A stretch of 55,591 nt of DNA from a virus. Positions 4,252-52,963 of this stretch are shown here, one piece after another. The notes under the pieces are model-generated. The model was not told the origin of the DNA, ran no database searches, and saw only the letters and a program-made list of their open reading frames with translations. The stretch lies in the IMG/VR virus record IMGVR_UViG_3300032237_001108, positions 1-55,591 of that record. One strand, given 5' to 3'. The stretch's first letter is position 1, and each line of letters begins with the position of its first letter. A program made the position numbers and the translations under genes.

Positions 4252-4261
4252 AGTTTTCCCG
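4252..4261 (-). promoter_or_regulatory. Motif I copy 2 (CGGGAAAACT)
   Basis: Exact 10-mer, 28 nt upstream of ATG 4223 (ARP-1), in the divergent gap facing nblA. Confidence 0.6.
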
Positions 4262-4709: not shown

Positions 4710-5782
4710 TGAGCACCAATCCACCCGATCCCCAGTGGCTCGCCCCGGCCCGGCAGATCGTCGCGCAATTCGAGGGCTGCGTGCTTACCGCCTACCCCGA
4801 TCCCGGCAGCGGCGGCGACCCGTGGACGATCGGCTACGGGCACACGGGGCCCGAGGTGGTGGCCGGCGCCACGATCTCTCAGGCGGTCGCCGAAGAGCTG
4901 CTGGCAGAAGACTTGCGCCTCAGTGCTGCCGACGTGTTCCAGCTCCTGCCGATGGCCGGGGGCTGGACCGCGAAGCGGCAGGCGGCCCTGATCTCGTTCA
5001 CCTTCAACGTGGGCGCCAAGGGCCTGGAGTTCTCCACTCTGCGGCGGCGGTTGCTGGCCGGCGAGGATGCCGACGCTGTGGTGAAGGCTGAGCTGCCCCG
5101 CTGGAGCAAGGCCGGCAGCCGGGTCATGGAGGGGCTGGTGCGGCGCCGGGCGGCAGAGGTGGCCCTGTTCTTGGCCGGTGCTTCTGCCCCTGTCACGACC
5201 GCCACGCCCCCGCGTCCGCCCGGTGGCGCAGCTCCCGATGGCCCGCCGATCTGGCCGCCGGGGATGGTGGGCCCGAAGATCCGCCCCAGCCTTAAGCCCG
5301 GTGATCACCACCTGATCGCCAACGACGTGAACGAGACGCTCACGGCCTGGAGCCATGACGGGCGCCGGCTGTGGCGGATCCCCTGCCTGTGCCGGGGGCA
5401 GGGGGGTGAGGCCGAATGGAACCGCCCGAGCACGGACACGCCGCCGGGCCTCTACCGGATCAACCCGAAGGGCATCTATCGCGACTACGAGCAGGATCCG
5501 GCCGCCAACTTCACCCCCGATCGCCGTGCCTATGGCTGGTATTCGTTCGATCTGGAAGGCCTGGAAGGGCAGGAGGGGCCCACCAGCAAGCCGTACCGCG
5601 ACGGGATCATGTGCCACGGCGGCGGGTCGGCCTGCGGCTGGCCGGGGGCCTGGAACCCGCGGCAGCAGCTCTACCCGACCCAGGGGTGCATCCGCCTGGC
5701 GAATCAGGATCTGCGCGATCGGATCCTGCCCCTGCTCGATCTGGGGACCGTGTGGATCAGCGTCCTGCAGGAGGCTGCATGA
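4709..5782 (+). CDS. Endolysin: GH24 lysozyme domain fused to an L,D-transpeptidase-like (YkuD) domain
   Basis: N-terminal QFEGCVLTAYPDPGSGGDPWTIGYGHT is the T4/lambda-type lysozyme motif. C-terminal ...GIMCHGGGSACGW...YPTQGCIRLANQDL fits the YkuD His...(S/T)xGC(I/V)R catalytic pattern. Start set to ATG 4709 (MSTNPPD). Confidence 0.85.
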   Translation: MSTNPPDPQWLAPARQIVAQFEGCVLTAYPDPGSGGDPWTIGYGHTGPEVVAGATISQAVAEELLAEDLRLSAADVFQLLPMAGGWTAKRQAALISFTFNVGAKGLEFSTLRRRLLAGEDADAVVKAELPRWSKAGSRVMEGLVRRRAAEVALFLAGASAPVTTATPPRPPGGAAPDGPPIWPPGMVGPKIRPSLKPGDHHLIANDVNETLTAWSHDGRRLWRIPCLCRGQGGEAEWNRPSTDTPPGLYRINPKGIYRDYEQDPAANFTPDRRAYGWYSFDLEGLEGQEGPTSKPYRDGIMCHGGGSACGWPGAWNPRQQLYPTQGCIRLANQDLRDRILPLLDLGTVWISVLQEAA

Positions 5783-7230: not shown

Positions 7231-8474
7231 CTACGCGGAGTTTTCCCGGCTCGCCAGAATCAGCACCGCGCCGGCCTGCGCAGCGGCAAACGCTCGCCCC
7301 TGCACTGCATCAGACGGCACCCGCAGCGCCACGACCTCCCCAGCCTCTGACGCGAACTCACGCACCCGGCCCACGGCGCCGGCCTTGGCCACCAGGAACC
7401 CGCCCCAGTGGCTCGCATCCACCCGGTAGGGGGCCAGCAGGATCGCATCCTCGGCCGCCCAGCAAAGCCGCGGCGGTGGGGTGACGCCTCGGCCCTGGGC
7501 CTCCAGATCGGCCAGCCATGGGCCATCCAACACGAATCCCGGCAGGAGATTTCGCTCCAGCAGTTCCAGCAGGGCGGCGCCGGCCTCACTGGGGGGCCTG
7601 GGGGCTTCCGCCACATCGGCCCAGAAAGTGAAATCGCGCAGGCTGTAGGGCTCTGGTCGGGCTTCGCGGTTGCGGTTGGCCTCGGCGAGGATCAGGGCGA
7701 TCTGCGCGGTGCTCTGTTCCTCCCGGTGAAGCCGCTCCCTTTCGGCCGCGTAACCCGCCGCGAGGGCCTGGAGGACATAGCCGCCGGGGAGCTTGCCGAA
7801 GCGCTCGCGGCTGAACTCGGCGGCGCCGGGCCAGAGTCTGCGGCATTCCCAGTAAGCGCGGGGCCAGTCGGGTCGGTCGCAATCGAGTCGCTGACCTCCT
7901 GCAACTTTCCCAGCTCCTCCTCCAGCGCCTGCATCTGAGCCGCGGGATCCTGCTGGTGCCCGGCGCCAGCCAGCTCCTCTTGCTGCTCAAAGGCGTGCAG
8001 CAGGGTCAGCAGGGGGCCGGGGAGGCGACGGGTCTGCTCATCGGTCCAGGCCGGGCGGATCCGGTTCAGGATCACGGTAACGCCCCGGATCGTGACACGG
8101 TTCGTGATCGCTCTGGCCTCCTCCAGGAAGGGGCCGATGATCCCGGCATGAAGCACCTGAACCGCTTCCTCCTTGGGACTCATGCGGCCGATTTTGGCGC
8201 CCTGCTCTTGGGCCAGCAGACGGGTGAGCAAGCCATAGCAGCGGTGAGCGGTGAACTCATCGGACTGCACAGCCTGATGAAGCTCCACGGCGGCAGCGGT
8301 GATCAGGCGATAGAGCGCGTTCTGAGGATCCACCGCCCGAATCCCTTGCATCTCATCCACCGTCAGGTAGCCCAGCCGGGGCAGAATCATTTCCCCACCA
8401 TTCCACGCGATCGTGGCGGTCGGCTGCTCGGGGGCCTGGGGTGCTGTTTCCCAGGGGAGAAGATCAAAGCTCAC
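7231..8474 (-). CDS. Predicted -1 frameshift fusion product (GT-like)
   Basis: The -1 frame is open from about 7990 to the stop at 7231. It reads as good protein (..RLDCDRPDWPRAYWECRRLWPGAAEFSRERFGKLPGGYVLQALAAGYAAERERLHREEQ..) but has no ATG/GTG/TTG until 7614. It is therefore reachable only by slipping at GGGAAAG. Confidence 0.55.
7239..7248 (-). promoter_or_regulatory. Motif I copy 3 (CGGGAAAACT)
   Basis: Exact 10-mer, 25 nt upstream of ATG 7213. It lies inside the last codons (SRENSA*) of the upstream frameshift product. Confidence 0.6.
7692..8474 (-). CDS. Zero-frame product of the frameshift pair (tail assembly chaperone G-like)
   Basis: 260 aa ORF. The sequence after the slippery site (SDSIATDPTGPALTGNAADSGPAPPSS...) is low complexity, consistent with a non-conserved zero-frame tail. 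Confidence 0.55.
   Translation of the reverse strand: MSFDLLPWETAPQAPEQPTATIAWNGGEMILPRLGYLTVDEMQGIRAVDPQNALYRLITAAAVELHQAVQSDEFTAHRCYGLLTRLLAQEQGAKIGRMSPKEEAVQVLHAGIIGPFLEEARAITNRVTIRGVTVILNRIRPAWTDEQTRRLPGPLLTLLHAFEQQEELAGAGHQQDPAAQMQALEEELGKLQEVSDSIATDPTGPALTGNAADSGPAPPSSAASASASSPAAMSSRPSRRVTRPKGSGFTGRNRAPRRSP
7905..7911 (-). other. -1 slippery heptamer G GGA AAG
   Basis: Minus strand reads CTG GGA AAG TTG in the zero frame, an X XXY YYZ heptamer identical to the lambda G/GT site. Confidence 0.55.
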
Positions 8475-11601: not shown

Positions 11602-11611
11602 AGTTTTCCCG
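11602..11611 (-). promoter_or_regulatory. Motif I copy 4 (CGGGAAAACT)
   Basis: Exact 10-mer, 21 nt upstream of ATG 11580 (ARP-2); followed by GCGGCAGTAG. Confidence 0.6.
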
Positions 11612-12152: not shown

Positions 12153-12401
12153 TCAGGCTGCCGTGAGTTTTCCCGCAGCCGGATCTTCCAGGCCCACGCG
12201 GGGGCCGTGGAGGCTGCCGAACCAGAACCGGCCCTGCGGGTCAAGGCTATTGCTCAGCAGCCGCAGGATCTGCTCTCCCTCGTGGTCATCGGTGACGGTG
12301 GCCAGCATCCGCAGGCCCTGCTGAGCGGCGGCAGCATCGCGGCGGAGGGCAGCGACACTGAGGGCTTGGAACAGGCGAAGGGTGGGGCTGCGGGTGGGCA
12401 T
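12153..12401 (-). CDS. Hypothetical 82-aa protein
   Basis: Start moved to ATG 12401 (MPTRSPTLRLFQALS...). The track start at 12434 is a TTG. Confidence 0.45.
   Translation of the reverse strand: MPTRSPTLRLFQALSVAALRRDAAAAQQGLRMLATVTDDHEGEQILRLLSNSLDPQGRFWFGSLHGPRVGLEDPAAGKLTAA
12166..12175 (-). promoter_or_regulatory. Motif I copy 5 (CGGGAAAACT)
   Basis: Exact 10-mer, 27 nt upstream of ATG 12138. It overlaps the last codons (AAGKLTAA*) of the upstream ORF. Confidence 0.6.
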
Positions 12402-13972: not shown

Positions 13973-13982
13973 AGTTTTCCCG
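13973..13982 (-). promoter_or_regulatory. Motif I copy 6 (CGGGAAAACT)
   Basis: Exact 10-mer immediately after the TGA of ARP-4 and 20 nt upstream of ATG 13952 (ARP-3). Confidence 0.6.
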
Positions 13983-15476: not shown

Positions 15477-15486
15477 AGTTTTCCCG
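15477..15486 (-). promoter_or_regulatory. Motif I copy 7 (CGGGAAAACT)
   Basis: Exact 10-mer, 21 nt upstream of ATG 15455 (ARP-4); followed by CCTGCAGTAG. Confidence 0.6.
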
Positions 15487-16652: not shown

Positions 16653-16693
16653 GCTTTTGGCAGCGATTCAGGCTGGTTGCCCTAGTTTTCCCG

Positions 16694-17790: not shown

Positions 17791-19266
17791 TTAGCGGTTG
17801 CGGGGCTTCTGGCGCTTGTTTGTCTCCTGTGTTTGCCGCTTTGCTTTATCTCTTAGCTGCTTGATTGCGTTTTGCTGCTGCCTTATCGCAATCCTTGCGC
17901 CAATGTACCTATCAGCCCTGTTCATTGATGCGTTAGAGCGTCTTTCTTTTGCCTTGCGTGATTGCTTTCTATTTTGGCCAATCTCTCCCCATAGGCCGAA
18001 CTTAACAACAGGATCAGCTTCATACGCTTTTTTTGCTGTAGCTTCTTCGCGTTGCAGTGTCGTGAGCTGCTTGCGAGCGTTGCGAATCTCAGCCGCCAGC
18101 GACTTTCGCTGATCTGTGCCGCGACCATACCCATACTTTGCGGGATCGTAGTTTAGTTCAATTTGCTTGAGCCTTTTTGATGCTCTCCTAAGTGATTCCA
18201 GTTGTTTATCAGCCTTTTGTCCTCTTGCAATCAGTTTAAGGTAGCGGGGGCTAAAGCCGCTTCCGCTTGAGGCTGGGGTGTTATCGCGATTCTTGGCGTT
18301 TTCAACTTTCCTGATTTCATCCAAAACGGCAGTTAATTTGGCGGTGATCTTGCCCTTAGCTGCGCTAATTCTTTCTTTCGTTAGCGGCTTTTTCTGTTTG
18401 CCAGCAGGCTTCTGCCGCTTGGCTGCCAGCGCCCCCGGCTTCAGTCCGCGAAGTTTGGCGATGGTGCCCCCTTGCCGGCCGGCCGTGACACGCTTGGGCG
18501 CAGCGGGCTTGGACGGCGCTGCCTTGCCCTTCCGCGCCACCCCGCCGACACGAGCCCCGCGGATCGTCCTGGCAGCGGTGCTAGGCGCGAGCTGCAAGGC
18601 CTTGGGGTTGTACTTCATGCGCCCCCTATTGCCCGTGGCCAGCCCAACCTTTAGGCGCCTTGCTGATTGGGTCATAGAGCGAGTAATCGCGTCAATCTGG
18701 CCAGGCGTTAATTTGTTCTTGCGCTTGCCTACATTGGCAATTAGTTGCATCCTTCCTTCGGAAAGATTGCTCAACTGTGCTGCTGTGTTTCCTGCAACGA
18801 CAAACTTTTGCTTGCGTGCTAGGCGCTCAACCTGTATTGCACGCCTGGCCGCCTTTGGCAGGGCCCTCAGCCTTCTTCCATGGTCTTTGCGGTGCCCCGC
18901 CATCATGGGATCGGTGCGGTCCTTCCTGGCCTCTGGCGACTGCATCCAGCCGACCGGCTTCTTGGCGGTGACCACCCTCCCCCGCACCTTCCCTCCCCTG
19001 CTCAGCACCCCCTGAGGCGCCCCCTTGAGGCGATCGGTCTGCCTTGCCCTGAGGTTCCCCGCCCCGGTGCGCAGCCGCCCCCCGCGGGCTGTGGCGCCAT
19101 TGCCGCTCACGCTTGTGATGCGCCCCGAGTTGTCCCGCGTGAGGCGATTGGTGCCGCGGCTGGCTCGCTTGGCCGGCGGTCGCTTGGGGGCCCCGCCGCC
19201 TGGGGTGCTCGCGAAGCGTCCGCGGTTGTCCCGCACATAGGACGTTCGGCGGGTTCCTCGGGGCAT
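17791..19266 (-). CDS. Arginine-rich paralog ARP-5 (491 aa)
   Basis: MPRGTRRTSYVRDNRGRFASTPGGGAPKR...NRLTRDNSGRITSVSGNGATARGGRLRTGAGNLRA. Hinge GTIAKLRGLKPGAL at 18427-18468. AT-richer coiled-coil C-terminus (17800-18420). Confidence 0.7.
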   Translation of the reverse strand: MPRGTRRTSYVRDNRGRFASTPGGGAPKRPPAKRASRGTNRLTRDNSGRITSVSGNGATARGGRLRTGAGNLRARQTDRLKGAPQGVLSRGGKVRGRVVTAKKPVGWMQSPEARKDRTDPMMAGHRKDHGRRLRALPKAARRAIQVERLARKQKFVVAGNTAAQLSNLSEGRMQLIANVGKRKNKLTPGQIDAITRSMTQSARRLKVGLATGNRGRMKYNPKALQLAPSTAARTIRGARVGGVARKGKAAPSKPAAPKRVTAGRQGGTIAKLRGLKPGALAAKRQKPAGKQKKPLTKERISAAKGKITAKLTAVLDEIRKVENAKNRDNTPASSGSGFSPRYLKLIARGQKADKQLESLRRASKRLKQIELNYDPAKYGYGRGTDQRKSLAAEIRNARKQLTTLQREEATAKKAYEADPVVKFGLWGEIGQNRKQSRKAKERRSNASMNRADRYIGARIAIRQQQNAIKQLRDKAKRQTQETNKRQKPRNR

Positions 19267-19287: not shown

Positions 19288-19297
19288 AGTTTTCCCG
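19288..19297 (-). promoter_or_regulatory. Motif I copy 9 (CGGGAAAACT)
   Basis: Exact 10-mer immediately after the portal TGA and 21 nt upstream of ATG 19266 (ARP-5). Confidence 0.6.
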
Positions 19298-20818
19298 TCA
19301 GTTCAGCGGCAGTCCCTGCGCGTCCACGCCACCCCCTGCGAGGTCATTGGGGCCCGGCACCGGCGGGTTGTTGAGGGCTTGCTGGCGGGCATCCTCGGCG
19401 GCCAGTTCGGTGGCTTCCTTCTTGCCGTCCACACCAGGCCGGAGCATCCCGCGCTTCTGAGCCAGGTGCGTGACCGTCTCGCGAAGCAACAACCCTTTGT
19501 CGTAGAGCGTGCCGGCAAGGGTGAGCAGGGCATCATCCACGGGCTTATCGGTGATCCCCGGCAGCAGATCCAGCCCGGCGCCGGCTTGGGGCATCTCCCC
19601 GGTGAATGCGCCCCAGAGCTGAAACATGGATTCCCATGCGGAGCTCTTTGCTTCGGCCATGGTGGTGATCGTGGCCTGAAGCTGAGCCCCCTCCAGTTCG
19701 GCCTGTGTGGCGGTGCGGTTGCTGCTGCCAGAGAACAGGAACGACAGGGTGGAGCGATCAATCAGCTTCTCAATCTCCTGCAGATGCTGCAAATGCTTGT
19801 CCAGGCTGCCGCCGGAGGGTTCGGCAAACGAAAGCGACCCGTTGGGATCCTTGATCTCCACCAGGCTGTTGGGCCCCAGCGTCAGCGGTTGCCCCGGCGC
19901 CCTGCCGGCGTCCTTGAGCACCGTGACGGGCAGGGCGCAGCGGTGCAGGAGCTCCTTGAGGTCGCTGTACTCCCTAAACCAGTCCAGGGTGAGGTTCGCC
20001 AGCGACAGCAGGGGGATCCCACATTGCCCGAAACCATCGCGGGTGGCGCCGTACCAAACCACCGGTGGATGCTGCAGCGGCTGGCCGTTGGCACCGGTGA
20101 AGACGCCCTCCTGCGGGCGGCCCTGCTCATCGGTGGCTACCTCCACCTGATAGTTGGCCGAGGCGCCCTTGCCGCCGTCGCCCTTGATCTTGAGAAGGCG
20201 CCATTCACCGCCCCGCATCACGCGATAGCGCGGCTCCAGCTTCAGGCCGTAGTTGCCGTCTTCAACCTCGTGCCATTCAAGAACCGTGACGGCGACCGGC
20301 ACCCGCTTCCGGCCGACGCGGGCCACCCTCCAGTTGAGGACGTTGCGGCGCTCGGCCATAGAGAACACCGGTCGGCGGCCCTGGGCCAACTCTGCGGCCC
20401 TGCTCTCGGGCACCCCCGGCGGCATGTCCGCCATCAACAGGCAGCCGCCATCGCGAAGCACCAAGGCATCGGCGCCGAGGCCCCAGGCCTTGAGGCTGTT
20501 GCCCTCACCGTCAATGTCCTGGGCTGCCTCCAAAAGCCCCTTCTGCACCCCTCGAAGCTGATACCGGCTCAGCACCCCCGCAAAGGCGCTCACGCCATCG
20601 CGGAAGAACGACGGGTAACTGCTGCGCTTCAGGCGAGCCTGGTAGGCCTCCTTGGGCTCGCCGGCCTCCTTGGGGAGGTGCCGCAGCTTCGCATCACCCC
20701 GCAACAGTTCCCAGCAGTCCGCCACAAGGTCCAGGTCCGTCATGGACTCTGCCAGCCTGGGGTGACGGAATGACGGCAGATCGCCCTTATCGGTTGGATG
20801 GCTGATCTGCTGCCGCAC
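19298..20818 (-). CDS. Portal protein (DUF4055-like)
   Basis: 506 aa, located between terminase and MuF. The N-terminal AYQARLKRSSYPSFFRDGVSAFAGVLSR resembles portal proteins of this type. Call rests on position plus that similarity. Confidence 0.65.
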   Translation of the reverse strand: MRQQISHPTDKGDLPSFRHPRLAESMTDLDLVADCWELLRGDAKLRHLPKEAGEPKEAYQARLKRSSYPSFFRDGVSAFAGVLSRYQLRGVQKGLLEAAQDIDGEGNSLKAWGLGADALVLRDGGCLLMADMPPGVPESRAAELAQGRRPVFSMAERRNVLNWRVARVGRKRVPVAVTVLEWHEVEDGNYGLKLEPRYRVMRGGEWRLLKIKGDGGKGASANYQVEVATDEQGRPQEGVFTGANGQPLQHPPVVWYGATRDGFGQCGIPLLSLANLTLDWFREYSDLKELLHRCALPVTVLKDAGRAPGQPLTLGPNSLVEIKDPNGSLSFAEPSGGSLDKHLQHLQEIEKLIDRSTLSFLFSGSSNRTATQAELEGAQLQATITTMAEAKSSAWESMFQLWGAFTGEMPQAGAGLDLLPGITDKPVDDALLTLAGTLYDKGLLLRETVTHLAQKRGMLRPGVDGKKEATELAAEDARQQALNNPPVPGPNDLAGGGVDAQGLPLN

Positions 20819-21761
20819 CGGTGCCGCCTATTCCTGCTGGCTGAGTTTTCCCGCTCTCTTGGGGGTCGTGACAGGGGCTAAACAGCACCAACTGCTCCGC
20901 CGCCTGCAGGATCTCAGCGGCCCCTGTCAGCCGCCTGCGGGGGGAGCCCCCTGCCGCCTCGGTATCGCCCGCGGGAAGCTCCAGGGCCAGCGCCTGCTGT
21001 TCAGGGGTAGGGTTCAACCGCTCGCCCCGGATGATGCCTTGCGCCATGCGCAGGAACTGCCCATGCGGCATTCGCGCCAGTTGCCGCCGCTTTGGGGCAT
21101 CCCACGCCGCCTCCAGCATCTGCCGATCAGCCCAGCCCATCGCAGCGTGAGCCTCATCGGCGATCCGCATGGCCTCGTTCAGCTCATCAAAGCTCTCGAT
21201 CTCATCCCATGGATCGGGCTCGCGGGTGGCATGGAGGGCGTCAGGGTCCAGGCAGCGGGTTGCCCCCTGCGCTTCTAGGATCGCCTCAACCTCTGAGGCC
21301 TCCAGCCCGGTGGCCGTCACCACGGCCGAAAGGGTGGCCCCCTCCCCAGCCAGGCGCCGCACCGTGGGGGCCTTGTCGCGCCAGCGATCGGGGAAACGGA
21401 CCCCGCTGCTGTGCCCCTTGTCCCGCAACCACTGCGCCATAGCGCCTCGGATGAAGGGCACCACGCACGTGCTCAGGGCATAGGGGATGCCGGTGGTCGG
21501 GTTGAGCCGTTGAGGGTCATAGCGGCGGCAGCCCTTGAGCAGGCCCGCAGCGGCAACCAAGAACAGGTCATCGAATGGCATCCGGGTGGACCGGGCCATC
21601 CGGTTTGCCATGGACCGGGCCAGCAGGAGATTGTCTGCGGCCAGTTGCTCTGACCACGGCGTAGGCGCTGGGAACCTTCCAAGCCGCCCCAGATCAGGAC
21701 ACGGTTCAGGCCGGATCTTGGTGCTGCGGGCGGCCCTGGGGCGCCGTGTCGTAGCAGGCAT
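20787..21761 (-). CDS. Sigma-70-family-like protein with recognisable region 2/3 but degenerate region 4
   Basis: NLLLARSMANRMARSTRMPFDDLFLVAAAGLLKGCRRYDPQR..GIPYALSTCVVPFIRGAMAQWLRDKGHSSGVRFPDRW matches the sigma region 2 pattern (DL.Q.G.iGL..A...fDp..g..FstYA...Ir.ai...l). I could not see a clear region 4 HTH. Start set to ATG 21761. Confidence 0.55.
   Translation of the reverse strand: MPATTRRPRAARSTKIRPEPCPDLGRLGRFPAPTPWSEQLAADNLLLARSMANRMARSTRMPFDDLFLVAAAGLLKGCRRYDPQRLNPTTGIPYALSTCVVPFIRGAMAQWLRDKGHSSGVRFPDRWRDKAPTVRRLAGEGATLSAVVTATGLEASEVEAILEAQGATRCLDPDALHATREPDPWDEIESFDELNEAMRIADEAHAAMGWADRQMLEAAWDAPKRRQLARMPHGQFLRMAQGIIRGERLNPTPEQQALALELPAGDTEAAGGSPRRRLTGAAEILQAAEQLVLFSPCHDPQESGKTQPAGIGGTGAAADQPSNR
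20844..20853 (-). promoter_or_regulatory. Motif I copy 10 (CGGGAAAACT)
   Basis: Exact 10-mer, 25 nt upstream of the portal GTG at 20818, inside the 3' end of the sigma-like ORF (ESGKTQ). Confidence 0.6.
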
Positions 21762-21768
21762 GTTCAAT

Positions 21769-23406
21769 TCACCGGCGAATCAGACCTGATTTCAGTGCCA
21801 TTATTGCGTCATCTGACCATCCCTGCTGTCGCAAAGCATCAGCATCCACCGGCTGGGGTGTGGCGCCATGGCCCCAGGAAACGGTGCTGAAGCTCAGCGG
21901 GCCGGAGCCGATCAGATAGATCAGGAGCTGGCTGGTCTGATCAACAATGTCGTCAAAGGTGGCGGCAGGGAACTGGATCAACTGATCCACCACCTTGGTG
22001 CTCCAAGGGGCGGAGCGCGGCAGGAACACGCGGCCGGCGTTCACTTCCACGCTGGCGGCATTGGCGCGGCTCTCCTTGGACCCCATCGCCCCGGCGCCGG
22101 CCTCCACCACGCGGTAGCCATGGGCGGCAGCAGTAAGGGTCTTGATCACGGCGGCGCCGTTGGCCTTCTTCTCGATCAGGAGCTCCCCAAAACCATGCCG
22201 GCGGTGCATGGCCTTGATCATCGCCACGGTCGCCGGAAAATCAAGGCGCTCATCCACAAGGTCCAGCAGCCAGGCCCCCTCCACGGTCTGCCCCCACAGG
22301 CCCATGGCCACCATGTCGCTCCCTTCGGTGTTGTCAAAGCTGCAGTCCACCGACAGGATCGTGCGCAGGAACGACTGAGGCAGCGCCGCGTCTCCCTCGT
22401 CCCCAGGCCAGGCAGGGCAGCCGTAGAACCGCAGGCGATCCCGGAAGAAGATCGTGCCCTTGCCGGTGCTGGGGCGCTGCTGGTAGACGCTCTCCCAGTC
22501 GCGGTCTGGGGTGTTGGCCCGCTTGCGTTGGATCCACCGCTCGTTGAAGCGCTCCGGGTCCAGGGCTTCGCCGGGCTGGCGCGGGTCAGGCTCGCGGCTG
22601 ACAGTGGCCGGGAGCGGCTTGGCCTCGTGGGCAGGCACGGCCTCGATCGGCAGGCTGACCACGTGCCAGCGCTCGCAGTCGGCCTCCATGCCCTCCTTCT
22701 CCAGCTCCAGGTTCTTGCCGAGCAGGTAGCCGATCAGGTCGGCCTCATGCCAGCGGGTGTGAACCACCACCACCGACGCGCCGGGTTCTTCGCGGGTGCT
22801 GAGCACCGAATCCCACCAGTTATGGACCTGCCGCCGAAACGCGGCGCTCTCGGCCTGCTCGCGGCCCTTAATCGGGTCATCGATGAACAGGCGGTGTCCG
22901 GGCTTGCCGGTACCCTTGCCGATGCCCGCGGTCCAGTTGGTGCCGATCCCGTCAACGGTGCCCCATTCCTCCTTGCCCGAGAGGCTCGGCCGGAGGATTC
23001 CGCCAGAGGCCAAAAAGTACCCTTTCGCGTCATCCGAGAAGCCAACGGCAAGGTCTTGCGACTGGCAGCAGATGCCGTTGGAGCGATCGGGATAGCGCCG
23101 CAGGCAATAGCCCGGCAGGAACCGGCTGAAGATCGTGGATTTCCAGTGCCGCGGGGGAAGCTCCACCATCAGCCGCGGCAGTTCGTCATCGGCCACGCGC
23201 TGGGCCAGATCAATCAGCCGCAGGGTGTGACGGGTAAAGGGAAACCGCGGGAAAGACGTGGCGATGTAGGTCCGAAAGTCGGCGGTGTAAGGCTCCACAG
23301 CCGCTGGGATCGCCTCCTCTGCCGCCCTGGCCTCCTGCACCTCCCGCATCACGGGAAAGCCGCCCCAGTCGTTGGAGGCAGCGTGGTGCATGAGGTTCAG
23401 GGGCAT
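21769..23406 (-). CDS. terL: Terminase large subunit
   Basis: 545 aa. LPPRHWKST (P-loop-like), HRLFIDDP and HTRWHEADLIGYL are typical TerL ATPase/nuclease motifs. TGATG junction with dcd. Confidence 0.85.
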   Translation of the reverse strand: MPLNLMHHAASNDWGGFPVMREVQEARAAEEAIPAAVEPYTADFRTYIATSFPRFPFTRHTLRLIDLAQRVADDELPRLMVELPPRHWKSTIFSRFLPGYCLRRYPDRSNGICCQSQDLAVGFSDDAKGYFLASGGILRPSLSGKEEWGTVDGIGTNWTAGIGKGTGKPGHRLFIDDPIKGREQAESAAFRRQVHNWWDSVLSTREEPGASVVVVHTRWHEADLIGYLLGKNLELEKEGMEADCERWHVVSLPIEAVPAHEAKPLPATVSREPDPRQPGEALDPERFNERWIQRKRANTPDRDWESVYQQRPSTGKGTIFFRDRLRFYGCPAWPGDEGDAALPQSFLRTILSVDCSFDNTEGSDMVAMGLWGQTVEGAWLLDLVDERLDFPATVAMIKAMHRRHGFGELLIEKKANGAAVIKTLTAAAHGYRVVEAGAGAMGSKESRANAASVEVNAGRVFLPRSAPWSTKVVDQLIQFPAATFDDIVDQTSQLLIYLIGSGPLSFSTVSWGHGATPQPVDADALRQQGWSDDAIMALKSGLIRR

Positions 23407-24301: not shown

Positions 24302-24879
24302 CTCGCTCGTGGCTCGTAAAAATCACAGTCGGGCGCGAAAATCGGAAGACGGCCCCTCCTCTCGGGCACGCCCTGAGAGCAGGGATCAGCGCCGCCGCGC
24401 CAGTGCCGGCAGTCGTGGCAAACCAACCCCCCGGCAGGCGCAACCAGCGGCACTGGCGGGGCGGCTGGGGGCTGGGCGGCGCCGTGCTGGCGGCCCAGGT
24501 CGTAGCAGGCGCGGATGGCGGGGCCAAAGCCATGCTCTGAACCATCGTTGTAGACCCTACACAGCTCCTCATCCGTGACCACCGGGGCAGCCTCGGGGGT
24601 GGTGACCATTTTCGTGGCGCCAGGAAAATGGTTGGCGTGCGGCTGCTGCTGCGCAGCCTCCAGCGCCATGATCCGCTTCAGGTGATCGTCAATCCAGCGC
24701 ATCAATTTGTCCACGTCTTTGCCCCATTCCAGAGTGGCCAGTCTCTGGGTTTCGTATTTCCGCTCCAGCGCCTCCACCCGCTCCAGCAGGTGCAGCAGCA
24801 CATGGGAATAGGCGGCGCCCTCAACAGCGGCGGACTGGTAGAGCCAGGCCAGGGTTTCGGGGGGTAGTGGCTTGGTCAT
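24298..24879 (-). CDS. Hypothetical protein (193 aa), Cys-rich C-terminus
   Basis: ATGA overlap with the stop of the pentapeptide gene. No family recognised. Confidence 0.55.
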   Translation of the reverse strand: MTKPLPPETLAWLYQSAAVEGAAYSHVLLHLLERVEALERKYETQRLATLEWGKDVDKLMRWIDDHLKRIMALEAAQQQPHANHFPGATKMVTTPEAAPVVTDEELCRVYNDGSEHGFGPAIRACYDLGRQHGAAQPPAAPPVPLVAPAGGLVCHDCRHWRGGADPCSQGVPERRGRLPIFAPDCDFYEPRAR

Positions 24880-25622
24880 GCCTCCACCTCAGGCCGCGCC
24901 ACCACCGACCGCAACCACTCGGTAGCGGCCTCGTTGTCGTCGTAGAAATGGCCGTGAGCCTCGGTGCCTCCGAGCATCAGCCCGGCGACTTCCGAGCCAA
25001 CTGCAGCCTCCAGCAACCGGCCCACCTCTCCGGCCTGGTCAATCAACCAGCCGCCAATGCCGTAAGCGGTGGAGCAGCTGTGACACGTTTTCATCTCCAA
25101 CGCACCATCAGCAAGCGCTGCAGTGGCGGCAGCCCTGAGCCTCTGGGGAGCGTCGGCTGCGATGGCCAGCCCCAAGGTCCCGCTTAGGTTGGCGCCGCTC
25201 AGGTTGGCGCCGCTCAGGTTGGCGCCGGTCAGGTTGACGCCGCTCAGGTCGGCGTCGGTCAGGTCGGCGTCGGTCAGGTCGGCGCCGGCCAGGTCGGCGT
25301 CGGTCAGGTCGGCGCCGGCCAGGTTGACGCCGGCCAGGTTGACGCCGGCCAGGTTGACGCCGCTCAGGTCGGCGTCGGTCAGGTTGGCGTCGGTCAGGTT
25401 GGCGCCGCTCAGGTTGGCGCCGCTCAGGTTGGCGCCGATCAGGTTGACGCCGCGCAGGTCGGCGCCGATCAAGTTGGCGCCGATCAAGTTGGCGCCGATC
25501 AGGTTGGCGCCGATCAGGTTGGCGCCGGTCAGGTTAACGCGTTGACCCTCCGGGTCGAAAGCGAGCCAGCGGACGTGGCTGGCGAGGATTTCGATCAGGT
25601 TGATTGTGGATGGTTCAGCCAT
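24876..25622 (-). CDS. Pentapeptide-repeat protein with a non-repeat C-terminal domain
   Basis: About 24 consecutive A(D/N)LxG-type pentapeptides (GANLIGANLIGANL...DADLTDADLSGVNLAG...) followed by a roughly 100-aa unique domain. Confidence 0.9.
   Translation of the reverse strand: MAEPSTINLIEILASHVRWLAFDPEGQRVNLTGANLIGANLIGANLIGANLIGADLRGVNLIGANLSGANLSGANLTDANLTDADLSGVNLAGVNLAGVNLAGADLTDADLAGADLTDADLTDADLSGVNLTGANLSGANLSGANLSGTLGLAIAADAPQRLRAAATAALADGALEMKTCHSCSTAYGIGGWLIDQAGEVGRLLEAAVGSEVAGLMLGGTEAHGHFYDDNEAATEWLRSVVARPEVEA
25184..25540. repeat. Tandem 15-bp near-identical DNA repeats (coding for the pentapeptide array)
   Basis: caggttggcgccgct / caggtcggcgtcggt / caggttgacgccggc units repeat head-to-tail across about 360 bp. 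Confidence 0.9.
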
Positions 25623-26379: not shown

Positions 26380-26553
26380 CTATTTGGTGCCGGTCTGGAT
26401 AGGGATACCTTCAGCCAATAACCTCGCCACCTCTCGGCCGCTGATCACCCGGTCGTATCGGGCCTGCAGCAGCAGGGCAAGCGTGTAGGGGTGCCGGCCG
26501 GGGTGCTCGCGGGCGATGGTGGAGACCATCTCGGCGGGGGTGGTGGTGCTCAC
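26380..26553 (-). CDS. Hypothetical 57-aa protein
   Basis: GTGA overlap with the stop of 26550..27278. MSTTTPAEMVSTIAREHPGRHPYTLALLLQARYDRVISGREVARLLAEGIPIQTGTK. Confidence 0.4.
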   Translation of the reverse strand: MSTTTPAEMVSTIAREHPGRHPYTLALLLQARYDRVISGREVARLLAEGIPIQTGTK

Positions 26554-27278
26554 GGCTGGCCCTTCTTGACGGCGAAGGCCTCCTCAAGGATCCGGTGAAC
26601 TCCCGCGCTGTCTCCCCAATGTGTTCTGCCGCCATTGGCGAGCCCGTGCATCGCCTCGCATAGGCGGTAATAAGCCGGGATCAAGTCCCACAGCATCCGC
26701 GCCATCACGTTGGCCCGCTCGATCTCCTGCTGCTCCAACAGGTCGCGCCAGAGTTGCCGGGCCAGCTCCAGATCACCGCGAAACGCCCGCACCAGGGGGA
26801 ACAGAGCCTGCGCTTCCTCCGCCATGCCGCTGCCGATCGCGTCATAGGCCTTGCGGTAGCGGCTCAGCACCTGAAGGTGGGATTCGGCCAGGGCGGCGGT
26901 GGACTCCTGCTGCTTGCCCAGCACCTCGGGGTTGATGACCTTGGCGGTGCTGGCCGGGGAAGGTGACTGCGGCGCTCGCGGCGGAGCTGGAGGCTTCGGC
27001 GCTTGTGGGGTGGGTGGCGCGGTGCGTTTCGGCTTGCCCTTCCGGCCCTTGCTGCGGTCGTAGGCCTCGGCTCGCTTTTTCCAGTTGAACCGAGCAGCGA
27101 CCTTGCCAATCGCCTGATGTGAAATCCCCAGGATCTTGGCCAGGGTTGTCAGGGTTCGATCAGGGCCAAGCTCCAGGAACTGCACAAAACGGTCGTAAGC
27201 CTCGGCGGACTCCTCAAGGCCTCTGCAGCCCTGTCCCTGGTCCCAGATCGCAGCCAAGGAGAGTCCCGGTCCTGACAA
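26550..27278 (-). CDS. HTH protein heading the leftward operon (terminase small subunit candidate or regulator)
   Basis: RTLTTLAKILGISHQAIGKVAARFNWKKRAEAYD resembles TerS-type N-terminal HTH segments. It is the first gene of the operon that later contains terL. Function uncertain. Confidence 0.45.
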   Translation of the reverse strand: MSGPGLSLAAIWDQGQGCRGLEESAEAYDRFVQFLELGPDRTLTTLAKILGISHQAIGKVAARFNWKKRAEAYDRSKGRKGKPKRTAPPTPQAPKPPAPPRAPQSPSPASTAKVINPEVLGKQQESTAALAESHLQVLSRYRKAYDAIGSGMAEEAQALFPLVRAFRGDLELARQLWRDLLEQQEIERANVMARMLWDLIPAYYRLCEAMHGLANGGRTHWGDSAGVHRILEEAFAVKKGQP

Positions 27279-33214: not shown

Positions 33215-33224
33215 TGGGAAAACT
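33215..33224 (+). promoter_or_regulatory. Motif I near-copy on the plus strand (TGGGAAAACT)
   Basis: 9 of 10 positions match (GGGAAAACT exact) and it is followed by GCAGCAG. It lies 16 nt upstream of ATG 33241. Confidence 0.5.
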
Positions 33225-36791: not shown

Positions 36792-36976
36792 TTTTCCTTG
36801 TTGTTGGGGTTCTTATTGGATGCGTTGCACGTAAAAAGGTATTTGATGAAACGTGGCACGCTGGATATATAGAAGGTGTCCGCTATGGCAACCATGAAAA
36901 CGTTTTCCTAAGGCGGCGCATTATTCATCTAGAAGCTCAGGCCCGTCAACTGAAACGCACTGGGGTAAAGGCATGA
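36779..36976 (+). CDS. Small membrane protein (65 aa), AT-richer
   Basis: MQSVIFLVVGVLIGCVARKK has an N-terminal transmembrane segment. ATGA overlap with the sigma gene start. Confidence 0.45.
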   Translation: MQSVIFLVVGVLIGCVARKKVFDETWHAGYIEGVRYGNHENVFLRRRIIHLEAQARQLKRTGVKA

Positions 36977-37818
36977 GGGCGATTGATCAATTTTATCTAG
37001 ACTCCTACGGCCGAGTCCCGCTGCTCACCGCAAAGGAAGAGATTGTTTTAGCCAGGGCAATACAAAAAGCAAGCGAGCCAGGCGCAACACTGCGGGAAAA
37101 GCGGGCTGGAATACGTGCAAAAAAGCGCATGATTCAGGCCAACATGCGTTTAGCGGTCAACATGGCGATGAAGTTTTTGCCACGCTGCAGCACGCTTGAT
37201 CTTCATGATCTTGTGCAAGAAGCAGCGTTCGGTATCAACCTCGCCGCCGAAAAGTTTGACCCAGAGCGCGGCTACAAGTTTTCCACCTATGCGTATTGGT
37301 GGATTTGGCAGATCTTAAACCGTGCGATTACGTCCCAGGATCGGTCCATTCGTATCCCTGTCAACGCGGCGGAAAGCCTGGCCAAGATGTTTCGTCTGAC
37401 CCAGGACGCAGCGGCCAAGGGTAAGCCGATCAGCGAAGCCGAAGCAGCCAAGGCGGCGAATATCCCGCTTGCTAATGCTCACGCGGCTTTGCTGGCTCTA
37501 GGTGTTCACTCGTTAAACTACATGAAGCACGGAATTGATACCGAGATCATTGATCTTTTAGAAGCGCCAGCTTCTGATGATTATTTCAGTGATCTGGGGG
37601 TCAGCCGGGCGGAGCTGTTGGAGATTGTCAATCAGCTTCCAACGCAGGAGGCCTATGTCGTGGGTTCCTTTTTTGGCCTCCACGGCGAGGCGCCGCAAAG
37701 CCTCACCCGCATCGGAAAGGATCTTGGCATCAATCGCCAGGTGGTCACTCTGCGCAAGGACAAAGCGCTGAACCGCATCCGCCGCGCCATCTATCACACC
37801 CACGGAATCACCGCATGA
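36973..37818 (+). CDS. Sigma-70-family RNA polymerase sigma factor (regions 2, 3 and 4 recognisable)
   Basis: MIQANMRLAVNMAMKF....LDLHDLVQEAAFGINLAAEKFDPERGYKFSTYAYWWIWQILNRAI covers regions 2.1-2.4. SLTRIGKDLGINRQVVTLRKDKALNRIRR is a region 4.2 HTH. The gene is visibly AT-richer than its surroundings. Confidence 0.85.
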   Translation: MRAIDQFYLDSYGRVPLLTAKEEIVLARAIQKASEPGATLREKRAGIRAKKRMIQANMRLAVNMAMKFLPRCSTLDLHDLVQEAAFGINLAAEKFDPERGYKFSTYAYWWIWQILNRAITSQDRSIRIPVNAAESLAKMFRLTQDAAAKGKPISEAEAAKAANIPLANAHAALLALGVHSLNYMKHGIDTEIIDLLEAPASDDYFSDLGVSRAELLEIVNQLPTQEAYVVGSFFGLHGEAPQSLTRIGKDLGINRQVVTLRKDKALNRIRRAIYHTHGITA

Positions 37819-42245: not shown

Positions 42246-42255
42246 AGTTTTCCCG
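42246..42255 (-). promoter_or_regulatory. Motif I copy 11 (CGGGAAAACT)
   Basis: Exact 10-mer, 20 nt upstream of ATG 42225. Confidence 0.6.
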
Positions 42256-44923: not shown

Positions 44924-45160
44924 TCACTGCTGCAGTTTTCCCGGCTCGGGCTCGTAGGCCTCGTTCACCGCGGGAGTGCTCAGGTCGTCAGCCTGGAAGG
45001 TGCCGCGATTGGTGCGTGCTCGGCGCCGGGGCCTGGCTTGGGACTCCTCTGTTGTCACATCAGGCGCAGCCTCCTCGGGCTCCCGCTCGCCGCTGATCAG
45101 GGCTTGCTGCTGCTCGTGGGTCATGCCCGCGGAGAAGCTGAAAAGAGCAATGTGTGCCAT
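44924..45160 (-). CDS. Hypothetical 78-aa protein
   Basis: Start at the internal ATG 45160 (MAHIALFSFSAGMTHEQQQ...), with GGAG 10 nt upstream. The track ORF start at 45325 would overlap the gene at 45219..45701. Confidence 0.4.
   Translation of the reverse strand: MAHIALFSFSAGMTHEQQQALISGEREPEEAAPDVTTEESQARPRRRARTNRGTFQADDLSTPAVNEAYEPEPGKLQQ
44934..44943 (-). promoter_or_regulatory. Motif I copy 12 (CGGGAAAACT)
   Basis: Exact 10-mer, 19 nt upstream of ATG 44914. It overlaps the last codons (PGKLQQ*) of the 78-aa ORF. Confidence 0.6.
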
Positions 45161-45737: not shown

Positions 45738-46706
45738 TCAGGCAGTAATCGCGGCGTTGGTGATGTTGTAAAGGCGAGCGGCGGCGCGTTTGTTCTCAAT
45801 CACCATGGCGGCGTGCCAAGAAATCCGGGTAATCCGGGTTGGGGTGGTGGTGCTCTCGCCCACGTCGTAGATCGTCAGGCCGGGCTGAACGGTGCCATCA
45901 GCGGTCAGGGACGGGCCCTGAACACCGGACACAAGGCCTTCGCCCATCGACACGCAATAAACGCTCGTCGTGTTGGAGCTGGAGCCCTCATCAAAGCCCT
46001 GGATTGCGACGTTCTTAGCGTCCACGTCGGTGCGGATGATCTCCACGTCGCCGTAAAACATGACCGAACGGCCGAGCTCGTTGAGCTTGAAATCAACGGT
46101 GCCCGAAACGCCAACGGCGCGGGAGGCAGCATTGAAACGCAGGGCCATCTTTTTGCCCATTACCAACCGCTTCATGCTGTTGGGGCCGTCCACGGCATCG
46201 ATCAGGTCGTCCAGGGCGGCAAAGCTCAAGCCAGCGCCAGAGGCGTGGTTGGCGATGGCCTGGGACGATCCAACGTTGATCTTCTTGCGAAGGCCATCCA
46301 TCTGTCGGCCGTTGGACTGGCTGGAATCGCCCCGGACGAAATCACGCTCAATCGTCATGCGCAGAGCGCGAGCCGAGGCTTCAATCTGGCGAGCGTGAGC
46401 GTTGGCGCCAAACAGGGCGATCTTGCTGCTGTCCGTCTTGATGTCCTTGCCGTAAATCTTGAGGACTTCGGCTTCGGTGACGGTGCTGCCTTGGGTGTCG
46501 TCGTTGGCCTCGTCAAAGAGGCGAGGCTGCGAATCAGGCAGCTCGTCATCCATGGCGTAGACATAGGCGCCGCCTTGGGTATCAACCCAGGGGATCACCG
46601 GGGCCAGTTCGCCGGTGTTAAGGATGGCGCGAACGCCCAGCTCCAAGCCGGAGGCGTTGGCTTGAGAGCGGAGCGCGAATTGCTCCCAAAGGGTGGTAGA
46701 TGCCAC
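45738..46706 (-). CDS. Major capsid protein (HK97-fold type)
   Basis: 322 aa following a scaffold-like gene. ..GLSFAALDDLIDAVDGPNSMKRLVMGKKMALRF... and the C-terminal ISWHAAMVIENKRAAARLYNI resemble phage major capsid proteins. GTG start. Confidence 0.7.
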   Translation of the reverse strand: MASTTLWEQFALRSQANASGLELGVRAILNTGELAPVIPWVDTQGGAYVYAMDDELPDSQPRLFDEANDDTQGSTVTEAEVLKIYGKDIKTDSSKIALFGANAHARQIEASARALRMTIERDFVRGDSSQSNGRQMDGLRKKINVGSSQAIANHASGAGLSFAALDDLIDAVDGPNSMKRLVMGKKMALRFNAASRAVGVSGTVDFKLNELGRSVMFYGDVEIIRTDVDAKNVAIQGFDEGSSSNTTSVYCVSMGEGLVSGVQGPSLTADGTVQPGLTIYDVGESTTTPTRITRISWHAAMVIENKRAAARLYNITNAAITA

Positions 46707-46873: not shown

Positions 46874-46883
46874 AGTTTTCCCG
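46874..46883 (-). promoter_or_regulatory. Motif I copy 13 (CGGGAAAACT)
   Basis: Exact 10-mer, 4 nt after the scaffold stop and 167 nt upstream of the capsid GTG at 46706. Confidence 0.6.
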
Positions 46884-47750: not shown

Positions 47751-47760
47751 AGTTTTCCCG
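47751..47760 (-). promoter_or_regulatory. Motif I copy 14 (CGGGAAAACT)
   Basis: Exact 10-mer, 41 nt upstream of ATG 47709 (scaffold). Confidence 0.6.
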
Positions 47761-49336: not shown

Positions 49337-49346
49337 AGTTTTCCCG
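49337..49346 (-). promoter_or_regulatory. Motif I copy 15 (CGGGAAAACT)
   Basis: Exact 10-mer, 3 nt after the tail-tip stop and 21 nt upstream of ATG 49315. Confidence 0.6.
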
Positions 49347-52211: not shown

Positions 52212-52963
52212 CGGATCTTGCTCACAGCAAAGGACACGTCGTAGTAGGTGCCGATCGTGCCGCCATCAGCGCGGCGCCGGGCCACGGGCTCGGACCATTC
52301 GGTGGGGAACCATCCACCGGTGGAGGGGCTGGCTGCGGTGGTGGCCTTGAGCCAGGTTTCCAGCAGAGTCAGGTTCGCGGCAGTGACCCATCCCTGAACC
52401 CGCCGCGTTTCGGTCACAGCCAGCGGCCCGGTGATCACGTGCTTCCCAGCGGGGGTGAGCGCAAGGGATGGCAGATCGGCAAAGCTGTCGGGCCGGGCGG
52501 TGAGGTTCACCACGGCGCTCCCAAAGGTCAGCGTGCCCAGGTTGAGCTGTGCGGCCTGCTCTGCCTCCTCCTCGCCTTGACGCAGCAGGATCGCCAGCGC
52601 CTGGGAGGCATCCACGAGGGTGATGCTCACCCGGCAGAACATGCCCGCCATCGCGATCGATGGCGCCGAGGTGAACCAGCAGGGCACCGCTGAGCTCCAC
52701 GCAAACCCCGGCGCCTCGCCGGTCAGGCTCACGGTGGTCCCCACCACGCCCGTGCGCACCGGGTCATCCTCCAGGAGCCGCACTGCGTTCCAGGTGTCGT
52801 ACAGGCCGGCGATCGTGGCCCCGTCCTCGCGGTTGACGATGCCCGAGAGGGCCCACCGGCGAGCGGCCCGACCCCTCCGCACGTCCACCTCGTCGTAGCC
52901 GAAAGGGTGGTCCGTGAGGTTCGGGAAGGTGTAGGCGGTGCCGCCGTAGGAGAGCGTGATCAT
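52208..52963 (-). CDS. Distal tail protein (Dit-like)
   Basis: 251 aa, immediately after the tape measure with a 4-nt overlap. Call is by position. Confidence 0.5.
   Translation of the reverse strand: MITLSYGGTAYTFPNLTDHPFGYDEVDVRRGRAARRWALSGIVNREDGATIAGLYDTWNAVRLLEDDPVRTGVVGTTVSLTGEAPGFAWSSAVPCWFTSAPSIAMAGMFCRVSITLVDASQALAILLRQGEEEAEQAAQLNLGTLTFGSAVVNLTARPDSFADLPSLALTPAGKHVITGPLAVTETRRVQGWVTAANLTLLETWLKATTAASPSTGGWFPTEWSEPVARRRADGGTIGTYYDVSFAVSKIR

Follow-up and report, generated by a model that had tools for sequence, protein, structure and literature searches.

A predicted SigF-like phage sigma factor with a degenerate region 4 and a candidate beta-clamp-binding tail

The viral genome analyzed here is IMG/VR record IMGVR_UViG_3300032237_001108, taken from position 1 to position 55,591 (this whole stretch of 55,591 nucleotides is called the window below). 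On its minus strand, between the genes for the terminase large subunit (terL) and the portal protein, lies a gene (20787-21761, stop codon included) whose 324-residue product is almost certainly a protein of the sigma-70 family, as judged from sequence profiles and a predicted structure. Sigma regions 2 and 3 are present in it, profile and fold searches detected no region 4.2, and a conserved peptide near its C-terminus is of the type that binds the bacterial beta clamp. A short DNA motif, motif I, occurs at the 3' end of the gene and is repeated along the late genes that follow. We propose that a large and previously unrecognized family of phage sigma factors may have swapped -35 recognition for a tether to the beta clamp, and that each clade may have its own co-evolving, -35-less promoter word (GGGAAAACT or CGGAAAGCT). 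The full model of a clamp-coupled late sigma is given a probability of roughly 0.4, and its parts are graded separately below.

An initial annotation, made from the letters of the sequence, had described the gene as sigma-like, with a degenerate region 4, in a slot that normally holds no regulator. The observation holds, the interpretation placed on it is supported in part, and the claim about the slot fails.

Sigma regions, region 4 and the C-terminal peptide

Sigma homology is restricted to residues ~38-200 of the protein, which match two PHROG sigma families (1e-16 and 1e-13) and the NCBIfam model of cyanobacterial SigF (PRK07408; 2e-12), and the NCBIfam and PDB alignments extend to residues ~196-221. 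Region 2 occupies residues 38-116 (21414-21650; all parts of this gene are on the minus strand), with regions 2.1/2.2 at DDLFLVAAAGLLKGCRRYDP and 2.3/2.4 at LSTCVVPFIRGAMAQWLRD, and is modeled with a predicted local distance difference test score (pLDDT) of 81-90. Region 3 follows at residues 125-165 (21267-21389) as a three-helix bundle, with helices at 125-139, 144-151 and 155-165 in the AlphaFold2 (AF2) model. Pfam Sigma70_r2 scores 15 bits in the window protein, which is below the gathering threshold, and is matched in 36 of 40 close homologues; Sigma70_r3 is matched in 10 of the same 40 (best E 0.003). A profile of these 40 homologues aligned with Bacillus SigF (1l0o_C) in the PDB over residues 41-198. 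By Foldseek, the AF2 model matched sigma-S, SigA, sigma-32 and sigma-28 in the PDB (E ~1e-4) and phage sigma factors in BFVD, where the top match was a 206-residue protein (E 4.6e-8), presumably the sigma of phage S-CBS2. The region 2.3 signature 'VP.I.G...LRD' is common to the window protein and cellular SigF-type sigmas. Together these searches bear out the region 2 and the region-3-like stretch of the initial annotation, and by its profile matches the protein is a group 3 (SigF-like) sigma in which both regions are clear. Its start is placed at ATG 21761 and its stop codon at 20787-20789. A TTG lies two codons 5' of this ATG; the start Met is shared by the homologues in the alignment. Fifty-eight full-length homologues were found, with 44-91% identity.

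Region 3 is followed by an acidic linker (residues 166-188, 21198-21266) that is disordered in the model (pLDDT <50 at 167-188) and, by its position, would correspond to region 3.2. A three-helix domain specific to the family comes next (residues 189-244, 21030-21197; pLDDT 80-93), with W220 and F236 invariant, and then a linker variable in length and sequence (residues 245-280, 20922-21029), which is predicted to be disordered (pLDDT <56). The conserved C-terminal epitope AEILQAAEQLVLF (residues 281-294, 20880-20921) has its core QLVLF at 20880-20894, and 30 further residues and the stop codon (20787-20879) complete the gene. The confident parts of the AF2 model are the sigma-2 domain (residues 30-116) and the three-helix domain (residues ~184-244); a low-confidence helix is predicted at residues 281-293.

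Pfam r4 or r4_2 was matched in none of the 40 close homologues and in only 2 of 43 wider family members, weakly (E 0.057), while the nearest cellular-type group 3 sigmas in the same profile search matched r4_2 in 44 of 72 cases and r4 in 30 of 72. Taken alone, the C-terminal domain found no PDB match by sequence profile, and none by Foldseek when modeled separately; hhalign placed it weakly in the sigma-4 register (P 0.0018, probability 15%). A 4.1 pattern (L..AL..ADR.MLE.AW) is recognizable by eye. In the AF2 model and the alignment the position of the first helix of the helix-turn-helix (HTH) is a predicted loop (KRRQLARMP), and the putative recognition helix keeps Q-F and not the basic residues that contact DNA. 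Because of these last three features, "degenerate region 4" is an accurate description. We read the domain as a weak relic of region 4, in which the 4.1 register would still be recognizable and the 4.2 HTH eroded; region 4.2 is very probably non-functional for -35 reading. The absence of a convincing region 4.2 HTH, as initially described, was confirmed by Pfam, PDB profile and fold search, hhalign adding no more than a weak signal in the 4.1 register, and the profile mapping that had been suggested as a check found sigma homology and no intact region 4.

An ordinary alternative sigma, with a region 4 too divergent for profiles that reads an upstream promoter element, and with a C-terminal peptide that has no role at the clamp, is a rather improbable alternative. 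It would agree with the hhalign result, in which sigma-4 of related cellular sigmas is the only register that the domain aligns to, with a helical domain that AF2 models confidently and that suits a region 4 in size and place, and with Foldseek alignments of the full model that cover ~240-270 columns of full-length sigmas. It is opposed by the near-complete lack of Pfam r4/r4_2 in ~80 members (the two weak matches included) when these are common in the nearest neighbours, by the loop and the Q-F in the HTH, and by the lack of conservation upstream of motif I described in the next section. It would also leave unexplained a QLxLF that is found family-wide after a variable linker.

The QLVLF of the window protein (residues 290-294) matches the beta-clamp-binding consensus QL[SD]LF. 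The bacterial motif is known in two forms, QL[SD]LF and QLxLxL (consensus quoted in PMC12867686), and the columns of the family motif fit both. All close homologues share EILxAAEQLxLF past the variable linker in the alignment. Among 82 aligned family members, Q is found in 68 and L in 67, followed by a small residue and then by L in 63; the last position is F or L in 60, and most of the others have G then L/I there. The motif is conserved down to ~25% identity in the forms QL[GADSV]L[FL] or QLxLGL. In the shortest homologues QLDLF is the exact C-terminus, and the motif is terminal in P0050-P0057, P0063, P0096, P0130 and others. The segment that carries it is exposed and flexible, or terminal, as indicated by the variable-length linker before it and the pLDDT <56 noted above. 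When 1.8 billion representative proteins were searched exhaustively with a profile, 50 of them scored E<1e-30 and 174 scored E<1e-10. Q[LM]x[LM][FL] or QLxLG[LI] lies within the last 45 residues of most of the ~56 best family representatives, and the same pattern was found by chance in ~1 of ~90 cellular-type sigmas, plus two more proteins that end in QLNLF and QLSLFG. A distant clade (clade B below) carries VVQPSLF instead, its sigmas ending in ...VVQPSLF(x)RRKPHPKAVKL; QPSLF differs by one residue from the QPDLF of the Mu C protein, which was validated experimentally (PMC12867686). From this conservation it appears slightly better than an even bet that the sigma tail binds the beta clamp. 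The clamp-type tail had been overlooked in the initial annotation. The proposal that the sigma lacks -35 recognition stood, and the tail changes the picture to that of a sigma that may be clamp-tethered.

The 30 residues past the peptide contain GKT, which is the translation of GGGAAAACT, and DQPS, which is the portal N-terminus QISHP read in the other frame. Many homologues end before this GKT...DQPS tail. By these correspondences, it is an overprint that would be conserved only through the DNA of motif I and the portal start, outside the functional protein. Two cultured phages end in a comparable way: the C-terminus of S-CRES1 gp20 is IQGSLF, and in S-CBS2 (NC_015463, ~5530-5700) the +1 frame past the annotated stop of gp077 runs for ~45 residues to ...GDGRLQGSLF*, like the end of S-CRES1 gp20. 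The annotated S-CBS2 gp077 (206 residues) is probably truncated through a frameshift or a sequencing error in the record.

The peptide might also serve another partner, as an amphipathic helix or degron for the beta flap of RNA polymerase (RNAP), an anti-sigma, a packaging protein or a protease, and the protein would still be a late sigma. Such a role would account for the hydrophobic positions at -6, -5 and -2 before the Q, which are conserved as well, and for the helix predicted at 281-293; most relatives also have no dnaN of their own nearby. On the other side, the invariant Q with L-x-L-F and the QLxLGL form fit both known classes of clamp motif, the clade B QPSLF resembles the validated QPDLF of Mu C (PMC12867686), and the motif is often precisely C-terminal. 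A different partner is judged unlikely, at about one chance in four.

Motif I and its likely reader

Motif I, written cGGGAAAACT, was followed in two versions. Its longer form GGGAAAACTSNGSCAG has 12 matches in the window when up to 2 mismatches are allowed, where 0.9 would be expected. All but one of them are on the minus strand, and each precedes a start codon by 28-40 nucleotides, without an intervening Shine-Dalgarno sequence. The 9-mer GGGAAAACT has 15 minus-strand copies, all of them in one contiguous late region that runs from the 3' end of the sigma gene round the circle to 42254. The operon that holds the small-subunit gene terS, dcd, terL and the sigma gene has no copy apart from the one within the sigma 3' end. 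This first copy, GGGAAAACTCAGCCAG (20837-20852), lies 34 nucleotides before the GTG of the portal gene, and the sigma stop codon falls 32 nucleotides within the portal open reading frame (ORF); both the motif copy and the overlap had been noticed initially and are confirmed here. A scan for sigma-70-type promoters between 19000 and 28300 found none, and terminators in that interval were at the level of shuffled sequence.

The same polarity is seen in relatives. We collected 30 IMG/VR loci with sigmas of at least 43% identity (clade A), a set that is partly redundant (near-identical phages), so that its counts overstate independence. On the strand of the sigma gene, the 9-mer occurs 138 times in ~250 kb downstream of the gene and 3 times in ~240 kb upstream of it; on the opposite strand, it is absent from ~490 kb. 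The first copy is found in the last 53-68 nucleotides of the sigma gene in 24 of the 30 loci and past the gene end in 3, and the motif core is retained even in a relative of 42% GC. Upstream of the core, no position is conserved in 41 instances except the C at -1, which argues that there is no -35 element.

Clade B comprises 20 IMG/VR loci (L069-L088) with a sigma of 33-38% identity. GGGAAAACT is absent from all 20. K-mer enrichment in this clade was swamped by coding bias, and a variant, CGGAAAGCT, was found through a mismatch scan around motif I: it occurs 30 times downstream of the sigma gene and never upstream of it, and the opposite strand has 2 copies. Its first copy is placed right at the stop codon of the sigma gene, with another ~31 nucleotides before the ATG of the next gene. 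Region 2.4 differs between the clades too, being FIRGAMAQWLRD in clade A and FIEGAIKHHIRD in clade B. Aligned to R436-S442 of sigma-70, these residues presumably recognize the -10 element at its upstream edge. This co-variation of motif variant and region 2.4 is the best available evidence that the sigma would read the motif.

Moreover, GGGAAAACT resembles the -12 element of Synechocystis SigF, GGGTAAG/GGTAA (PMC2532724). In the SigF register, transcription would start ~15-16 nucleotides past the first G, at a conserved SCAG, and leaders would be ~15 nucleotides long. The initial annotation had proposed the sigma, encoded at the head of the block, as the natural candidate reader of a -35-less motif I. 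On polarity, co-variation and likeness to the SigF -12 element it is the most plausible reader, and we consider it probable, at somewhat under two chances in three, that the sigma reads motif I.

Motif I could instead act at the RNA level, as a translation enhancer or a signal for re-initiation or processing, with the sigma reading other promoters or a single one at the head of the block. The tight spacing of 28-40 nucleotides to the start codon, with no Shine-Dalgarno sequence between, and the frequent placement of the motif immediately after an upstream stop codon would suit such a signal, and the tightly packed genes could share a transcript. An RNA-level signal does not readily account for the resemblance to -12/-10 elements of group 3 sigmas (PMC2532724), for the co-variation with region 2.4 between clades, or for a first copy that is usually at the sigma gene end together with the absence of the motif from the operon holding the sigma gene. 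It is an unlikely explanation, with odds of some three to one against it.

The remaining minus-strand copies, in the order of transcription, were mapped to 19288-19296 (30 nucleotides before ATG 19266), 16684-16692 (40 before ATG 16652), 15477-15485 (30 before ATG 15455), 13973-13981 (29 before ATG 13952), 12166-12174 (36 before ATG 12138), 11602-11610 (30 before ATG 11580), 7239-7247 (34 before ATG 7213), 4252-4260 (37 before ATG 4223) and 1549-1557, upstream of the tape-measure start (1523). Past the window ends they continue at 49337-49345 (30 before ATG 49315), 47751-47759 (upstream of the gene start at 47709), 46874-46882, 44934-44942 (28 before ATG 44914) and 42246-42254 (29 before ATG 42225), the last of the block. 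The sole plus-strand copy is at 33216-33224, 31 nucleotides before ATG 33247. At least five late proteins that each follow a copy of motif I (starts 19266, 15455, 13952, 11580 and 4223) share a paralogous N-terminal peptide, RR(T/S)Y(V/A)RDNRGRFAS(T)PGG. These proteins are very basic, rich in Ala, Gly, Lys and Arg, and correspond to the repeat families D5/D6/D8; the shared peptide may be a capsid-targeting or ejection-protein signal.

Genome setting, second sigma and replication

Identical 123-nucleotide ends (1-123 and 55469-55591) mark the window as a circular (or terminally redundant) assembly of ~55,468 bp. Its GC content is 65%, and the tape-measure gene is split over the two ends (3-1523 and 52960-55590, minus strand). 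By gene content the virus looks like a temperate siphovirus, with a serine integrase, RecT, a PDDEXK exonuclease, RusA, a lambda-O-like replication initiator, the tape measure and a lysozyme. A 5 kb query in megablast found no near-identical phage among 50,697 phage records. The cyanobacterial affinity of the virus is suggested by the best profile matches, by the cultured phages closest to it and by one homologue on a contig of a Cyanobacteria metagenome-assembled genome.

The order on the minus strand is terS candidate, pentapeptide-repeat protein, dCTP deaminase (dcd), terL, sigma ORF and portal, and the dcd...terL-sigma-portal synteny is retained in relatives at 45-68% identity. terL (21769-23406; PHROG terminase large subunit, 1e-74) is directly upstream of the sigma gene and translationally coupled to it, and the window scan found no motif I upstream of terL. 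The portal gene (19298-20818, GTG start at 20818; PHROG portal 2e-67, DUF4055) opens the motif I block, and its N-terminal ISHP peptide is kept in relatives. The terS candidate (26550-27278, minus strand; phrog_6299, 4e-13) lies ~3 kb from terL, with the pentapeptide-repeat protein, an ORF of no assigned function and the dCTP deaminase in between, and the packaging genes are thus outside the motif I block. We considered the sigma ORF as a possible TerS and rejected this identity: its homology is to sigma regions 2 and 3, it has no TerS HTH, and the terS candidate is elsewhere. The pentapeptide-repeat gene (24876-25622, minus strand) contains a tandem repeat of 15-nucleotide period in 22 copies and has a homologue in the same region of a relative (L007). 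A match to the SU10-type major capsid protein (45738-46706, minus strand) is distant from the portal and comes past the tail genes in transcription order round the circle, which is an unusual order for structural genes.

A second sigma gene (36973-37818, plus strand), in the early/recombination region, encodes a complete, group-2-like protein. Its Pfam matches are r1.2, r2 and a weak r4, and it aligns to the end of the NCBIfam model of cyanobacterial RpoD (2e-55), in agreement with the complete sigma initially reported there. A pairing of this complete sigma with the specialized one is plausible. Its GC content at third codon positions (GC3) is 0.61, compared with ~0.75-0.85 in neighbouring genes, and this low value suggests a recent or foreign origin. 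In P-SS2, the equivalent group 2 sigma is near dcd, ssb and exo genes.

No dnaN was found in the window by tblastn with the DnaN of a relative, and Pfam and PHROG scans of ~30 window proteins gave no polymerase or clamp. Together with the lambda-O-like initiator, this absence suggests that the host replisome is used and that host clamps would be loaded on the phage DNA; the phage presumably replicates with the host replisome. The most AT-rich relative (L004, 42% GC, 75.9 kb contig), whose sigma ends in QLDLF, encodes its own three-domain DnaN 7 kb downstream. This DNA polymerase III beta clamp gene (17823-18953 of that contig, minus strand) adjoins the structural module; the loci L005, L065 and L066 are grouped with L004 in this respect.

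Known systems and the proposed mechanism

A group 3 sigma right after terL, plus a group 2 sigma elsewhere, was described in P-SS2 in 2009 (PMC2784084), and a terL-adjacent sigma is annotated in S-CBS2 and S-CRES1-3. A search by tblastn of the 50,697 phage records found P-SS2 ORF003, S-CBS2 gp077 and S-CRES1 gp20 in the same slot, with 33-38% identity over regions 2-3. Neither the gene nor its slot is new, then: terL followed by a group 3 sigma in P-SS2, S-CBS2 and S-CRES1 makes the position less unusual than had been claimed, and it is the clamp-type tail that raises the interest of the initial observation. The cyanosiphovirus proteins are shorter (206-244 residues), and the portal is not the next gene in those phages. 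Those of S-CRES1 and S-CBS2, the latter in the +1 frame, end in (I/L)QGSLF, and GGGAAAACT is absent from the examined parts of the P-SS2, S-CBS2 and S-CRES1 genomes. In the full-text literature, in which subscription journals are incompletely covered, we found no description of the loss of region 4, of a clamp motif on these sigmas or of a GGGAAAACT regulon. At 50% identity the family splits into more than 50 clusters, mostly from freshwater and marine cyanophage-like siphoviruses.

One close mechanistic parallel is T4 gp55, which combines a sigma-2 domain with a divergent linker and a clamp epitope at its C-terminus; the late promoters that it serves have a -10 element only (PMC2988020, PMC7892883). 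The window sigma likewise has no detectable HTH for -35 reading, a flexible linker and a short hydrophobic C-terminal epitope of clamp type, and -10-type-only (here putative) late promoters stand before many late genes. Homology to gp55 was rejected: tblastn of the same phage records gave no T4-like match, and a gp55-like BFVD model was found at E 0.16, rank 32. The resemblance would thus be a convergence on mechanism and not family membership. The systems also differ in several respects. The window sigma keeps region 3 and a region 4 relic, in the manner of a natural gp55-gp33 fusion (engineered fusions of this kind have been described; PMC2988020), its peptide is of the bacterial QL[SD]LF type, suited to a dimeric host beta clamp and not to the T4 gp45 trimer, and the phage is a temperate siphovirus with no replisome of its own.

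Mu C uses the host beta clamp through a QxDLF-type motif for late transcription (PMC12867686). The proposed use of the host clamp recalls Mu C/Mor, and the clade B QPSLF is close to the Mu C QPDLF. However, the small Mu C protein is an activator that binds DNA and acts together with sigma-70 holoenzyme, and here the motif is on the sigma subunit itself. Cyanobacterial SigF and Bacillus SigF/SigB/SigG share with the window protein the best profile matches, the 'VP.I.G...LRD' signature and, for the motif, a -12 element like GGGAAAACT. In contrast, the cellular SigF proteins have a canonical region 4, need a -32/-35 element and have no C-terminal clamp motif.

In the clamp-coupled model, the sigma gene would be expressed at the end of the leftward terS...dcd-terL operon, in which motif I is lacking. 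Its product, of group 3 (SigF-like) ancestry, would bind host core RNAP through regions 2 and 3 and read the -35-less cGGGAAAACT as a -12/-10 element, with a start ~15 nucleotides past the motif start and leaders of ~15 nucleotides. The region 4 relic may dock on the beta flap. The O-like initiator would recruit the host replisome, which would leave host beta clamps (DnaN) on the phage DNA, and these DNA-loaded clamps would bind the flexible QLVLF tail and replace the missing -35 contact. Expression of the structural and late genes would thereby be coupled to replication of the phage DNA.

Several points weigh against this model. The whole case is computational, and the redundancy of the clade A loci bears on the polarity counts. 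The sigma-4 register found by hhalign leaves some residual DNA contact by the C-terminal domain possible. The clamp-type motif is short and sits inside a longer conserved segment that includes the hydrophobic positions and the low-confidence helix, and the peptide could be an amphipathic helix for some other partner. The spacing of motif I to start codons and its placement just after upstream stops also fit an RNA-level signal, and the sigma-portal overlap means that read-through from the upstream operon could express the late genes with no new promoters. Finally, a dnaN within 10 kb was not seen in the other related lineages, and the association of this sigma with a phage-encoded clamp rests on one lineage.

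A main role in host takeover, in place of promoter specificity, is a further alternative: the protein might tie up core RNAP as a sigma decoy, block host replication by binding the clamp, or do both. Overproduced Mu C is toxic via clamp binding (PMC12867686), and a sigma that has no region 4 could compete for core RNAP. The good conservation of regions 2.3/2.4 and 3 does not fit a decoy, nor does the conservation of the gene in a temperate-looking phage beside a full sigma, and promoter reading is favoured by the place of the gene in front of a co-oriented motif regulon and by the way in which motif and sigma vary together. We regard host takeover as very unlikely.

Clamp-activated transcription was long held to be a T4 curiosity. 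To date it has been recognized only in T4-type phages, which have their own clamp, and since 2026 for the Mu C activator, in a study that extended the mechanism to Mu and predicted a wider spread. If the clamp-coupled model is true, replication-coupled, clamp-activated late transcription would be built into the sigma subunit and run on the host clamp in temperate phages. It would be a third independent solution, and the first with the sigma subunit itself as the clamp ligand on a host clamp. It would also explain the 'SigF-like' phage genes found at the junction of packaging and structural genes, and would offer a simple and testable account, in which promoter word and peptide are both defined, of how the virion genes of temperate cyanophages are timed to genome replication.

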